Assembly (NCBI GenBank): GCA_038227875.1
Contig: JBBRPR010000026.1
Coordinates: 32,001-96,000, forward strand
DNA from: Planctomycetota bacterium
GTDB taxonomy: Bacteria; Planctomycetota; SZUA-567; H5-PLA8
DNA: 64,000 nucleotides
Reading direction: 5' to 3'
A model generated the notes under the pieces. It searched no databases. It was not told the origin of the DNA and was given only the letters and a program-made list of their open reading frames with translations. This document shows positions 51,009 through 54,341 of this stretch, one piece after another; positions within the stretch are counted from its first letter, which is position 1, and each line of letters starts with the position of its first letter. Position numbers and translations under genes: made by a program.

Positions 51009-51848
51009 ATGTCCAGTTCAGTTGCAGAATACGACACTAAAACAGCCGTGGTGAGTAACGAGGACCGTTTCCTGTTCGACCTGCAGGGATTCATTCTGCT
51101 GCGCGGTGTACTCTCGCCGGAAGAATGCCGGAACTATCTGGGTGTAATCGAAGAACTCGAGAACCTTCCGCACGACGACAAAGCGCGGCGCGAGAAGCTC
51201 AACCCGACCGGTCGTCCCAGCCAGCCCACGCTCGAAAACAATACGCACTCCAAGCGTTTGAACGGATTGCTGCGCCTCAATTCCGCGTTCGATGCGCTGA
51301 TCGCACATCCCGGGGTTGCGCCGTATCTTGAAGCCTTCATGGGGCAACCGCAACTGGTCAACACGTGGTCGATCTCGAAATTCAAAGGCCAGGACAGTGG
51401 CGGCTGGCATCGCGGCGTCTCGCCGATTCAGTACAGCTGCCGCGACGGCAATATACGCAGCGCGATGCTCAACACCGTCTGGTTCCTGACCGATAACGGT
51501 CCCGAGGACGGTTGCGTCGTCGCGCTTCCCGGCGGCCACAAGAGCAACCGCGATCTCGACTGGGGCAAGTATAAGGGCCTGGCCATGCCCGGCGCGCGCC
51601 CGATCACCGGCCAGCCCGGCGACGTCTTTCTCTTCTCCGAAACCGTGCTCCACAACGGCCTGCCCAAAACCACGCCCGGCCGCCGCACGAATCTCTACTA
51701 CAACTATACCACGCGCGATTTCAACGTGATGACCTTCTCGCCCGAGCATAACTTCCACTTCTGCATGCCGCCCTCGGTCCGCGCTCGATTCACACCCAAG
51801 CAACTCGAATACACCGAGTGGATGCAGTACATGCAAGCAACGGAATAG
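51009..51848 (+). CDS. PhyH-family Fe(II)/2-oxoglutarate-dependent enzyme with HxG motif
   Basis: FDLQGFILLRGVLS, WHRG, LTDNGPEDG, PGGHK, GDVFLF...LHNG, distal Arg; AGGAG RBS. Confidence 0.88.
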   Translation: MSSSVAEYDTKTAVVSNEDRFLFDLQGFILLRGVLSPEECRNYLGVIEELENLPHDDKARREKLNPTGRPSQPTLENNTHSKRLNGLLRLNSAFDALIAHPGVAPYLEAFMGQPQLVNTWSISKFKGQDSGGWHRGVSPIQYSCRDGNIRSAMLNTVWFLTDNGPEDGCVVALPGGHKSNRDLDWGKYKGLAMPGARPITGQPGDVFLFSETVLHNGLPKTTPGRRTNLYYNYTTRDFNVMTFSPEHNFHFCMPPSVRARFTPKQLEYTEWMQYMQATE

Positions 51849-51885
51849 TAACGATGAACGATGATTAATGAACGTTGGATAAAAA

Positions 51886-51912
51886 TTCGGAACGCGAAAT
51901 TTGCGTTCCGAA
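51886..51912 (+). terminator. Hairpin, probable terminator of the PhyH gene
   Basis: TTCGGAACGC-GAAATTT-GCGTTCCGAA followed by GTTT. Confidence 0.55.
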
Positions 51913-51963
51913 GTTTCATGTGGTCAAATGGTGGCTGTAGTTTTTCACAGGGCGACGTGCTTT

Positions 51964-52135
51964 CATGGAGGACAAGATTATGCGTGCTTTCTGCGCTCCC
52001 AACCACGTCCTCCATGTTCGCGCCTGAATCCTTCTTACTCTCACCAGCTAAGAATGGCCTGATCGCTCTTGTGAGCGGAGCGCGGCGTGGGGTCACATCC
52101 ACATCCGCGGCGCATGCCGCAAGGAGCGCAGTGTC
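51964..52135 (+). promoter_or_regulatory. Putative ribosome-dependent attenuator leader of the rbfA-like/rtcB operon
   Basis: CATGGAGGAC (51964-73) pairs with GTCCTCCATG (52007-16); CTGCGCTCC (51991-99) pairs with the downstream RBS GGAGCGCAG (52123-31) or with GGAGCGCGG (52077-85). Confidence 0.55.
51980..52027 (+). CDS. Putative 15-aa leader peptide MRAFCAPNHVLHVRA
   Basis: GGAGG RBS, ATG 51980, TGA 52025-52027; below the ORF-track size cut-off. Confidence 0.55.
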   Translation: MRAFCAPNHVLHVRA

Positions 52136-52495
52136 ATGTCGTATGACAAAGAAGAAAAGCGCGGCCAACGAGGCCATCGGGCTCAGCGCATCGAACGCAC
52201 CGTTGCCGACGTGTTGGAATATGAAATCCTGCCAGCGCTGGAAAACCCGGCGTTGGAAGAACTGCATGTGTTGCGCGTCGAGGCTTCCAACAACCTCGCG
52301 AGCCTGCAGATCGCAATCGTACCCAAACGCAAGGAAGTTCCGCAACCTCCCGAAGAAATCCAGGCGGCGCTGACCTCAGCAGAAGGCTTCGTCCGCTCGG
52401 AACTCGCCGGAATCCTGCGCATCAAGCGCATGCCGGTGATCCGGCTGCGCTACATTCCGCTGCCGCTATACGGGGCGGAAGGCGGTGGCGCATGA
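52136..52495 (+). CDS. Ribosome-binding factor A (RbfA)-like protein, divergent paralog
   Basis: HRAQRI..., NPAL..LHVLRVEAS.NL, AL..AEGFVRSELA..LRIKRMP.I pattern; AAGGAG RBS; lacks the canonical DPR motif and C-terminal helix. Confidence 0.8.
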   Translation: MSYDKEEKRGQRGHRAQRIERTVADVLEYEILPALENPALEELHVLRVEASNNLASLQIAIVPKRKEVPQPPEEIQAALTSAEGFVRSELAGILRIKRMPVIRLRYIPLPLYGAEGGGA

Positions 52496-53637
52496 AGCAG
52501 ATCTTCGCGCACCCACAGTTGGTGCCGTTAAAAATCTGGGCGGAGAAAGTCGATGCGGAGGCGCTCCAGCAGTTGCAGCGCCTCGCGCGTTCGGAGTTGC
52601 TCGCGGGGCCGGTGGCCGTCATGCCGGATGTTCACAGCGCCGGCGCCGTCTGCGTCGGCACGGTCCTCGCCACGGCGAACGTGGTACTGCCCACGGCCGT
52701 CGGGGAGGACCTCGGCTGTGGCATGGCCGTCGAACGGCTGCCGCTCGCCGCGAGCCATTTCTCGCGGGCGCAATTGGAATCGATCGTCGCAACTGTTCTT
52801 AAAGCAGTGCCCGTCGGCCGGCGCAGTCACGCCACACCGCGTGAATTTATCCAAGGCAGCGCGCTCAGCACCGGCGCGCTGCAACACGCCGCGGAGTACC
52901 TCGGTCCGCGCCAAGTCGGCACGCTCGGCGGCGGCAACCACTTCATCGAGTTGCAACGGGACGCACACGACCGGCTGTGGGTGACGGTGCATTCCGGTTC
53001 GCGCGGCGTCGGCGCGGCGATCGCGTCGCATCACGGTCGCGTGGCGGAAGCGAAGTCCGATCGCAAGCTGCCGTTTTTGCGACTCGGTACGTCAGAAGCT
53101 GACGCGTTCTGGCTCGACCTGGCGTGGGCGCTGGCGTTTGCCGAAGAAAACCGGCGTCGCATGCACGCGGCCGTGCGGCGCGTGCTCTCCGCACTGTGCA
53201 ATGAGCACGTGGAAGCCGCCGAACGCTTCGACGTCGCTCACAATCTGATCACGCGCGAAGTTCACGGCGGTCGGGAACTCGTGATTCACCGCAAAGGCGC
53301 CATGCCTGCCGCGGCCGGCGCGCGCGGCATCATTCCCGGCTCGATGGGTACTATCAGCTATATCGTGGAAGGACTCGGCAGCGACGCATCGTATCACTCG
53401 TGTTCGCACGGCGCAGGGCGAGCTCTCCCGCGCGTCGAGGCCCGGCAGCGCATCTCGCCGGCCCAGTTGCGCCGCGAACTTCGCGCCGTCGTGATCCCCG
53501 CCGATCCGCGCCTCGTACGCACGCTCGTTGAGGAAGCGCCCTCGGCCTACAAGCCGCTCAAACGCGTGTTGGCAGAGCAGGCCGACCTGGTCCGGCCGAT
53601 GCTGCGATTGGAACCGTTGGCGGTGATTAAAGGATGA
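52492..53637 (+). CDS. rtcB: RtcB-family RNA 2',3'-cyclic phosphate/5'-OH ligase
   Basis: MPDVH, DLGCG, GTLGGGNHFIE, HSGSRG, HN, HRKGA, PGSMG, SCSHGAGR, EEAPSAYK; ATGA overlap with the upstream gene. Confidence 0.95.
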   Translation: MKQIFAHPQLVPLKIWAEKVDAEALQQLQRLARSELLAGPVAVMPDVHSAGAVCVGTVLATANVVLPTAVGEDLGCGMAVERLPLAASHFSRAQLESIVATVLKAVPVGRRSHATPREFIQGSALSTGALQHAAEYLGPRQVGTLGGGNHFIELQRDAHDRLWVTVHSGSRGVGAAIASHHGRVAEAKSDRKLPFLRLGTSEADAFWLDLAWALAFAEENRRRMHAAVRRVLSALCNEHVEAAERFDVAHNLITREVHGGRELVIHRKGAMPAAAGARGIIPGSMGTISYIVEGLGSDASYHSCSHGAGRALPRVEARQRISPAQLRRELRAVVIPADPRLVRTLVEEAPSAYKPLKRVLAEQADLVRPMLRLEPLAVIKG

Positions 53638-53648
53638 AACCGAAAGAC

Positions 53649-53691
53649 GTCATTTTGACCTCCGTGCCAATGGCACGAAGGTTAAAATGAC
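53649..53691. terminator. 21-bp imperfect hairpin between convergent genes
   Basis: GTCATTTTGACCTCCGTGCCA-A-TGGCACGAAGGTTAAAATGAC. Confidence 0.65.
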
Positions 53692-53720
53692 CCTAGGGCC
53701 AACTGGCCCGCGGGTGTTCG

Positions 53721-54341
53721 CTACAGCGCACCATCCAAACTCAACTGCCCATATGTCGCCACCTTCGCGTCGCGGACGTTGTCGATCGGAACCGGCGTAT
53801 CGTTGCGCACTTCCGCCCCGGCAAAGGTGCATTCGATAATCGCGTTGGACACCGGCAGTCGCTTGAGCACCAATCGCGCGCGCGGCGTCATGCCTGCGAT
53901 ACCCGACGCGGCAATCACGTAACTTTCCTGATCGGACGTCGCAATCAGCAGCGCCTCGCGTTTTTGAACGGCCTTGGCCGACACAATCTCCGTAATCGCG
54001 ATCTCTTCAATCCGCTTGGCGCTCAGATCGGCCTCAAAGCGCGGCTTGGACGTCCAGTTCTGGACCAGCGATGCGTCGCGCGAAAAACGGTAGACGGCGT
54101 ACAGCGAGACGCTCAGCGAACTCAAATACGCCGCGGTCATCGCGAAATCGTTGCCTTTCAGCAGCGCGCGCATCAGCGGGCCGAAGAAGATCATACCCAG
54201 CGCGCTGATCGGCAACGCCAGCACCACCAGCATCATGTAGATGAGGATCTTCGCGGCGGGACCGCTGTTGTCCGGGACGCGATCGGCTTCGATCTTCTGG
54301 CGTTCTTCCGGCGTAAAGTTGCGTTCAGTAATCTTCAGCAT
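53721..54341 (-). CDS. Hypothetical membrane protein (2 TM)
   Basis: Two hydrophobic segments; start codon uncertain. Confidence 0.65.
   Translation of the reverse strand: MLKITERNFTPEERQKIEADRVPDNSGPAAKILIYMMLVVLALPISALGMIFFGPLMRALLKGNDFAMTAAYLSSLSVSLYAVYRFSRDASLVQNWTSKPRFEADLSAKRIEEIAITEIVSAKAVQKREALLIATSDQESYVIAASGIAGMTPRARLVLKRLPVSNAIIECTFAGAEVRNDTPVPIDNVRDAKVATYGQLSLDGAL

Follow-up and report, generated by a model that had tools for sequence, protein, structure and literature searches.

An RbfA-like gene coupled to rtcB

The window analysed here is a stretch of 64,000 nucleotides (nt) from a Planctomycetota bacterium (GenBank assembly GCA_038227875.1, contig JBBRPR010000026.1, positions 32,001 to 96,000 of the forward strand). 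On its forward strand, positions 52136-53637 hold a two-gene unit, in which an open reading frame (ORF) for a paralogue of the ribosome-binding factor RbfA, called RbfA-L in the following, is followed by an ORF for the RNA ligase RtcB:

52136..52495, forward strand: RbfA-like paralogue (RbfA-L), 119 amino acids (aa); KH type-II/RbfA core without the C-terminal helix, with NPA replacing the DPR motif
52492..53637, forward strand: RtcB 3'-phosphate/5'-OH RNA ligase, 381 aa, compact form, catalytic residues intact
52477..52495, forward strand: coupling junction, with a purine-rich sequence resembling a Shine-Dalgarno (SD) element (GGAAGG) and then GGTGG within the final RbfA-L codons, followed by ATGA at 52492-52495

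At the junction, the ATG of rtcB (52492-52494) overlaps the TGA of the RbfA-L gene (52493-52495).

Judged by sequence alone, the membership of RbfA-L in the RbfA family is marginal. Its score against the Pfam family PF02033 (RBFA) lies just above the gathering cut-off of 34.7 bits in a protein scan (35.0 bits, E = 1.9e-8) and just below it in a six-frame search of the genome (34.2 bits). Paralogues linked to rtcB in other families reach 20-34 bits against the same model, and RbfA-L fails the RbfA equivalog TIGR00082 (32.3 bits versus a cut-off of 51.15). Despite these marginal scores, its identity is secured by the predicted fold. An AlphaFold2 (AF2) model built on an alignment of 22 relatives (pLDDT 81.3) shows the succession α1, β1, β2, one long α2-α3 helix and β3, and in a Foldseek search of the PDB ranks 1-18 are all occupied by RbfA, with E-values down to 1.7e-5 and TM-scores of up to 0.78 by target. 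The 30S-bound RbfA structure 7afl_V matches the model with TM-scores of 0.63/0.74 and a root-mean-square deviation of 2.6 Å.

RbfA-L shares with canonical RbfA (PF02033/TIGR00082), a factor of late 30S assembly, the KH type-II fold, the proline before β3, the basic residues of the N-terminal helix and, in part, the AxG kink; several conserved basic positions (R15, R18, R87, K97 and R98) are kept as well. Unlike canonical RbfA, it is less basic and has lost two recognisable elements. The DPR motif of the α1/β1 loop, whose three residues are invariant in 18 canonical RbfAs of the phylum, reads NPA in the window's protein and DPxL in its subgroup, and in the wider RbfA-L subgroup the consensus at this position is DxxL, with neither the proline nor the arginine kept. 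The C-terminal helix and tail are also missing: the window's RbfA-L ends 1 residue past the RbfA core, and paralogues linked to rtcB stop 1-13 residues past it in 23 of 24 cases (the exception being a read-through ORF described below), whereas the canonical RbfAs of the phylum extend 27-58 residues further.

The RbfA-L proteins fall into a short subgroup of 116-119 aa, found in the window's family, and a wider subgroup, whose ORFs span about 110-195 aa and whose N-terminal extension contains a conserved Cys...GPDDGxDPR motif. Compared by hhalign, the two subgroups match each other at 98.6% (E = 1.4e-15) and canonical RbfA at 97.8% and 96.8%, so that they are mutually closer than either is to canonical RbfA, as members of one family. 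Two conserved cysteines lie in the N-terminal 40-60 residues of the wider subgroup (alignment A7), an extension that is missing from the window's subgroup.

The assignment of the second protein is unambiguous at the family level (298.6 bits against Pfam PF01139, cut-off 27). Its residues D73, C76, N149, H150, H167, H250 and H306 align with Asp95, Cys98, Asn202, His203, His234, His329 and His404 of Pyrococcus horikoshii RtcB. According to excerpts of PMC9745838, the latter enzyme binds metal M1 through Cys98, His234 and His329 and metal M2 through Asp95, Cys98 and His203, while His404 is the nucleophile that accepts GMP and Asn202 contacts the phosphates of GTP. The active site of the window's RtcB is thus intact by alignment, and GTP/Mn-dependent 3'-P/5'-OH ligation is predicted. 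The same residues recur in the RtcBs that are linked to RbfA-L in other genomes: in an alignment of 23 of the 24 linked enzymes (A5; that of locus L020 was left out for its ambiguous start), D73, C76, N149, H167, H250 and H306 are invariant and H150 is kept in at least 90%.

The window's RtcB matches none of the NCBIfam RtcB equivalogs (NF007153, 192.7 versus 407; TIGR03073, release_rtcB, 170.2 versus 271.8), and the second of these scores rules out membership in the RtcB2 subfamily. A quick maximum-likelihood tree groups the linked RtcBs into two strongly supported clades (supports of 100 and 99), one with 6 members and one with 17, and places the enzyme of locus L053 by itself on a long branch.

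An earlier interpretation made from the letters alone (the sequence-only reading) had placed the two ORFs and their ATGA overlap at exactly these coordinates. It had further called the first protein RbfA-like, which Pfam supports marginally and the KH type-II RbfA fold securely, had noted the loss of the DPR motif and the C-terminal helix, as is evident from the NPA sequence and the early end of the chain, and had described the metal- and GMP-binding motifs of the ligase as intact, in agreement with the alignment to the P. horikoshii enzyme.

Occurrence of the pair in the Planctomycetota

The window's genome (G000; 9.3 Mb, 176 contigs, 88% complete) also contains a canonical rbfA gene (G000:C3:182307-182597; 94-95 bits against Pfam, 91.9 against TIGR00082 with its cut-off of 51.15), and RbfA-L is therefore not the only RbfA of this organism. 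The sequence-only reading had proposed a search for such a gene in the infB operon; it is indeed present, on another contig, but sits downstream of dnaN and a DciA-family gene (L001:1357-3289) and not after infB. In addition, the genome encodes four RtcBs, the studied one included. PrfH, the partner of RtcB2, is not adjacent to the studied rtcB, whose neighbour is the RbfA-L gene, but lies on another contig beside an RtcB2 of its own (G000:C3:107930-109599, L006; RtcB2 scores of 449 against TIGR03073 and 502 against NF007153; 231 bits for PrfH against TIGR03072). Another rtcB is followed by rtcA (G000:C59:20130-23176), and the fourth, a long form on contig C102, stands alone. No match to archease (PF01951) was found in this genome at its 88% completeness. 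Since canonical rbfA, RtcB2-PrfH, an rtcBA operon and a fourth RtcB are all present, the RbfA-L-RtcB pair is an extra and specialised one, an addition to the standard set and not a substitute for a missing part.

The pair is widely conserved. Among 401 species genomes of the window's phylum, surveyed with an RbfA-L profile and an RtcB search, at least 24 from 14 families carry an RbfA-like gene followed by rtcB (the window and five relatives from its family, plus 15 and 3 further loci). This count is a lower bound because the loci were picked by score and by an alignment pattern of compact RtcBs, with 35 weaker RtcB matches falling outside the set. In the window's order, RbfA-L occurs in 6 of 20 genomes, all of them among the 17 genomes of the window's own family. 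All five family relatives have an RtcB orthologue (54-59% identity) directly downstream. Between the clades, RtcB identity drops to 35-48%, and the gene arrangement is unchanged. When the 20 best-scoring further loci for compact or RtcB1-like RtcBs were inspected, an RbfA-like ORF was found directly upstream in 15 and was absent in five, which encode RtcB1-like enzymes of 406-417 aa. An RbfA-like ORF is present upstream throughout the two nearest RtcB clades and at L053, and such a neighbour was found at none of 18 other RtcB loci examined (5 RtcB1-like, 10 of a third RtcB group, and the three other RtcBs of the window's genome).

The junction between the two genes is conserved as well. At 20 of the 24 linked loci it is a 4-nt NTGA overlap (19 ATGA, 1 TTGA); the other four show an 8-nt overlap, a 17-nt overlap or 4-nt gap depending on the choice of start, a read-through frame and an inserted gene, respectively. 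The sequence GGAGG or GGAGGT occurs within the last RbfA-L codons at 11 of the 24 loci, and most others, including the window's, have a near form. The recurrent '...GGGA' C-termini of RbfA-L are explained by this position of the rtcB SD element (GGAGG type) within its final codons. No third conserved gene was found in the flanks of the linked loci. Each of the 13 carrier genomes searched with PF02033 has a full-length canonical rbfA at another place; in contrast to canonical RbfA, RbfA-L is always an extra copy, coupled to a ligase. The linkage of RbfA-L and RtcB, whose conservation in other genomes the sequence-only reading had made a test of its proposal, is thus old and selected, with at least 24 of 401 genomes carrying it and a 4-nt overlap in nearly every case.

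Two of the irregular loci deserve a separate description. At L053 (genome G229), an inserted gene for a SpoU-family RNA 2'-O-methylase (positions 521-1447; PF00588, 68 bits) separates the RbfA-like gene from rtcB. Some repair systems methylate the sealed junction, and the insertion recalls these. At L020 (positions 1501-2151; genome G009), the RbfA-like frame meets no stop at the junction and extends 106 codons further, over the start of rtcB, and a 253-aa database protein, P0018, comprises an RbfA-like N-terminus and, after a frame change, the N-terminus of RtcB. Frameshifting, misassembly or genuine variation could each explain these two cases.

Close homologues of the window's RbfA-L are rare. 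A word-indexed search returned 3, an exhaustive HMMER search over 1.84 billion representatives 58 at E <= 1e-3, and pattern scans of a collection of genome contigs with alignments A1 and A4 matched no relative. The wider subgroup is represented by at least 194 clusters in a collection of 5.8 billion proteins, with source names that read 'ribosome-binding factor A' or 'hypothetical protein' and with origins given as Planctomycetaceae, Pirellulales, Phycisphaerae or 'Planctomycetes bacterium'. For one homologue, the Protein Atlas shows clusters of short 'RbfA family' proteins, mostly from Planctomycetota; one structural neighbour of this homologue is dominated by Verrucomicrobiota, which we note as a lead only.

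PrfH exceeds its cut-off in 5 of the 401 genomes, among them two of the 24 module carriers (the window's genome and G006). The RbfA-L-RtcB module is therefore about five times more common in the phylum than PrfH-RtcB2, and the two are not mutually exclusive.

The leader and the boundaries of the unit

The region upstream of the pair contains a short upstream ORF (uORF) and further conserved elements:

51967..52027, forward strand: leader SD and uORF, with the SD GGAGGA at 51967-51972 and 15 codons from the ATG at 51980 to the TGA at 52025-52027, encoding the peptide MRAFCAPNHVLHVRA
52101..52135, forward strand: leader box and SD of RbfA-L, with the conserved box GCGCGGCGTGG at 52101-52111, a small hairpin and the SD AAGGAG at 52121-52126

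All six loci of the window's family group have a uORF of exactly 15 codons. In an alignment of the 230 nt upstream of RbfA-L from five genomes of this family (A6), its start codon varies between ATG, TTG and GTG and its stop codon between TGA, TAG and TAA, each at a fixed column. Such exchanges of start and stop codons at constant length identify the element as a translated leader and not a mere RNA motif. Across the whole module family, an SD followed by a uORF of 14-20 codons lies within 330 nt upstream at 19 of 23 loci (L053 was left out of this count, having only 38 nt of upstream sequence), compared to 1.8 +/- 1.2 in mononucleotide shuffles (maximum 6 in 300) and 2 in the reverse complement. 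The uORFs of the wider subgroup share a GAGCCTCGGC ('SSLG') box, and each of the two subgroups has peptide motifs of its own.

An RNAalifold consensus of five sequences contains 34 base pairs, 8 of them with changes on both sides, in which codons of the uORF pair with the conserved box and the SD of RbfA-L. Folded as a single sequence, the window's leader scores mildly better than its shuffles (z = -2.08), with a different pairing drawn. We tentatively regard the leader as a candidate translational attenuator, based on the predicted pairing of uORF codons with the RbfA-L SD. In the leader-peptide attenuators of the ermC and cat type, too, a short, SD-preceded leader ORF has codons able to pair with the downstream ribosome-binding site; unlike in those systems, no terminator or drug link is known here, and the pairing scheme rests on five sequences. 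The conserved leader ORF suggests that expression of the module is gated by translation, and it is plausible that the translated leader serves as a sensor of impaired translation. The rtcBA operon with RtcR, as found in E. coli, is likewise an RtcB-based, stress-responsive repair operon, and the window's genome has an rtcB-rtcA pair of its own. RtcR is a sigma-54 activator. The studied pair differs in lacking RtcA and an adjacent regulator, its control seemingly residing in the translated leader.

The unit is delimited by two hairpins:

51879..51919, no strand assigned: upstream boundary hairpin, 20-nt arms, 85% complementary, 216 nt before RbfA-L
53649..53691, no strand assigned: downstream boundary hairpin, 21-nt arms, 90% complementary, without a T-run

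The upstream hairpin resembles a terminator on either strand, probably that of the preceding PhyH gene, whose stop is at 51848. The downstream hairpin is absent from the terminator calls because it lacks a T-run. No sigma-70-like promoter was detected in 51700-54000, and an Rfam search of the window matched zero families. In a Pfam scan, the nearest neighbours of the pair are an AraC-type regulator, a PhyH dioxygenase, an unknown 224-aa protein and a short-chain dehydrogenase/reductase (SDR). There was no match to the NusA or IF2 families among the 22 scanned window ORFs of at least 330 aa, and no search was aimed at truB. The flanking hairpins and the absence of nusA and infB from the vicinity had both been noted in the sequence-only reading, and on both points it was right.

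One wetland metatranscriptome run yielded a 208-nt contig aligning to 53220-53425 with 5 differences. This match is a weak hint that the rtcB of a close relative occurs in an RNA library, where it may derive from carried-over DNA. Among the sequencing runs, a single DNA run covers the entire stretch and may be where it came from, whereas the remaining runs contain small portions of it; the matches in other runs are mostly short and fall on the conserved GGGNHF region of other RtcBs.

Possible function of the module

To our knowledge, RtcB2-PrfH is the sole ribosome-repair system worked out so far. Like the pair described here, this system (found in E. coli ATCC 25922 and others) is a two-gene operon that combines a dedicated, compact RtcB paralogue with a small ribosome-binding paralogue of a translation factor, and its hosts retain the housekeeping version of the partner factor. 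As described in parts of PMC9304027, E. coli RtcB2 acts on the free 30S subunit, where it rejoins 16S rRNA that has been cleaved between A1493 and G1494, but it does not repair tRNA, and it needs its ribosome-binding partner PrfH to dismantle the stalled 70S ribosome first, whereas RtcB1 behaves in the opposite manner and repairs tRNA but not the 30S subunit. The two systems also differ in several respects. PrfH, a paralogue of release factors, moves into the A site of a stalled 70S ribosome and hydrolyses peptidyl-tRNA, whereas the partner here is a paralogue of RbfA, a binder of the free 30S subunit at the 16S 3' end, and would by homology act there. Moreover, the partner gene comes first in the present operon, its ligase stays below the TIGR03073 cut-off and a true PrfH-RtcB2 pair coexists in the window's genome. 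For RbfA itself, a portion of PMC8177701 reports that the protein traps the 3' end of 16S rRNA within the exit channel, keeps the h44/45 linker unfolded by wedging h28 away from this end, and reads the 16S 3' end with its α1/β1 loop.

Given these two precedents, a shortened RbfA that is produced in a constant ratio to a ligase of its own appears well suited to keep hold of the neck and decoding region of a damaged or re-opened 30S subunit while the break is resealed. We tentatively favour, at somewhat less than even confidence, the view that the pair and its leader form a self-contained, coupled RNA-repair module in which RbfA-L recognises the RNA or the ribosome on behalf of its own RtcB. The SpoU-family methylase gene inserted at L053 and the lack of an archease match in the window's genome also speak for this view. 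The module probably mends or services ribosomal RNA, and its most likely role is a PrfH-independent targeting of RtcB to the 30S subunit or the 3' region of 16S rRNA. We infer 30S binding by RbfA-L from its modelled fold; the RNA target, any direct interaction of the two proteins and the way in which the leader works are inferences too.

On this proposal, the leader would keep the operon low as long as the uORF and the RbfA-L ribosome-binding site are able to pair. Ribosomes that occupy the leader ORF or stall on it would free this site, such that output would track the state of translation, and the ATGA overlap would ensure that RbfA-L and RtcB are made in fixed proportion. By homology with RbfA, RbfA-L would then dock on the free 30S subunit at the neck and the mRNA-exit channel, hold the 16S 3' end and keep h28 and the h44/45-linker region open. 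RtcB could now seal a break with 2',3'-cyclic-phosphate and 5'-OH ends in the 16S 3' minor domain or the decoding region, after which RbfA-L would leave. Wherever both exist, the module would work beside PrfH-RtcB2 and not instead of it. The sequence-only reading had suggested that the RbfA paralogue replaces PrfH. PrfH is indeed rare, being found in only 2 of 24 carriers, but the window's genome and G006 hold both modules, and the two are therefore not simple substitutes.

Several observations weigh against a role of the pair in 30S repair. The α1/β1 loop of RbfA-L lacks the DPR arginine, the C-terminal helix is gone, and the linked RbfA-L cores have a median isoelectric point of 9.0 and a net charge of +2, compared to 10.0 and +6 for canonical RbfAs (medians calculated without the orphans L021, L022 and L026 described below); the core of the window's protein is neutral. 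Xia et al. reportedly found in 2003 that the C-terminal part of RbfA, the part missing from RbfA-L, strengthens 30S binding. The window's RtcB is distant from the RtcB2 of its own genome (99 bits) and scores nearer to RtcB1-like enzymes than to RtcB2, and the backbone of the RtcB tree, which relates the linked clades to the RtcB1-like enzymes and the third RtcB group, is poorly resolved, such that the linked RtcBs may or may not be monophyletic and the linkage may have arisen once or more often. Three short RbfA-like paralogues without a C-terminal helix are orphans with no adjacent RtcB (L021 in G373, L022 in G161 and L026 in G085). Their genomes contain no RtcB match at E <= 1e-30 to the window's enzyme, and their neighbours are unrelated, comprising a P-type ATPase, PtsP, a radical-SAM protein, a glycosyltransferase and an LCIB-like protein; G161 and G085 also carry a canonical rbfA. 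Since these orphans exist without such an RtcB, the paralogue may have a job of its own. Finally, a fusion search found no fused long form of RbfA-L and RtcB, which is weak evidence. A complex prediction for RtcB (A5) and RbfA-L (A2), run without controls, was uninformative in either direction (ipSAE values of 0.01 and 0.00).

Some of these points are what would be expected if RbfA-L were an archease-like accessory of RtcB, a reused RbfA fold that attaches to the ligase or to the RNA ends and speeds guanylylation or turnover on ordinary substrates, such as broken tRNAs or mRNAs, and has no role at the ribosome. The archease of archaea, Thermus and the human tRNA ligase complex is likewise a small accessory protein that is encoded with RtcB or acts on it, although its fold and family are unrelated to RbfA-L. 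Archease acts on the guanylylation cycle of RtcB and not on the choice of its target. Consistent with such a role, the tight 4-nt coupling suggests a fixed stoichiometry, archease was not found in the window's genome, the DPR arginine and the C-terminal helix, both thought important for recognition of the 30S subunit and its 3' end, are lost, the core is less basic and the ligase is closer to RtcB1-like enzymes than to RtcB2. However, this explanation has to accommodate the orphan paralogues, which occur without such an RtcB, the retention of the KH/RbfA core with its basic residues R15, R18, R87, K97 and R98, and the lack of any fusion, and we consider it unlikely.

A translation-stress operon whose two products are co-regulated but act separately, with RbfA-L as a spare 30S assembly or holding factor for times of impaired translation and RtcB as a general repair ligase induced under these same conditions, would account for the orphans and for the conserved leader ORF, which is typical of translation-sensing control. 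It is also in line with a finding in a cyanobacterium, where rtcB and rbfA are unlinked and, according to the passages available from PMC8421152, both are induced late in translational stress. Yet mere co-regulation leaves unexplained why the NTGA overlap and the internal SD have been kept across 14 families with no third gene joining, and why only two particular RtcB clades are linked; we judge it quite unlikely.

It is very improbable that the pair serves normal rRNA maturation, for instance by ligating 16S precursors to which the RbfA-like protein holds on. This idea draws on the function of RbfA as a maturation factor acting on the 16S 3' end (PMC8177701, in the part cited above) and on the insertion of a gene for a SpoU rRNA-family RNA methylase in one operon, but a core step would be expected to be universal within a lineage, whereas the module is patchy, occurring in about 24 of the 401 genomes and in 6 of the 17 from the window's own family. 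A chance neighbourhood or a decaying, functionless rbfA duplicate, to which the marginal Pfam score might point, is refuted by the conservation of the pair and its overlap, with intact frames in 24 genomes, 38-52% identity within the family group, a confident fold and the at least 194 protein clusters of the wider subgroup in public data, and its likelihood is negligible.

Returning to the module as an RNA-repair unit with RbfA-L as the recognition partner, a fuller version of this reading can be envisaged, namely a second, PrfH-independent ribosome-repair pathway, widespread in Planctomycetota, that senses its own trigger through damaged or stalled ribosomes on a leader ORF of 15-18 codons and in which a truncated RbfA re-opens the broken 30S neck and decoding region to present the cut 16S ends to a dedicated RtcB. 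This scenario is possible, if on balance doubtful. The RbfA-L-RtcB module is apparently undescribed: no account of such a pair was found in the open-access full-text literature, a coverage that excludes subscription journals and supplements, and within it the remark of the sequence-only reading that it knew of no characterised RbfA-RtcB system stands.

Collectively, our findings describe a putative RtcB repair operon with a paralogue of a ribosome factor as the partner. The example of RtcB2-PrfH showed that a partner recruited from the translation apparatus can make an RtcB paralogue specific for the ribosome. In the present module, such a recruitment appears to have taken place a second time and independently, in a different phylum: the recruit is a 30S assembly factor instead of a release factor, it is codon-coupled to the ligase, and the two genes follow a leader ORF that could monitor how well translation proceeds. 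If RbfA-L acted instead as an archease-like cofactor, it would represent a new class of RtcB activator. If it does target the 30S subunit, assembly factors would be redeployable to re-open mature subunits for repair, the module would provide a handle on the 16S lesions that occur in nature, and hundreds of database entries labelled 'ribosome-binding factor A' would find an explanation.

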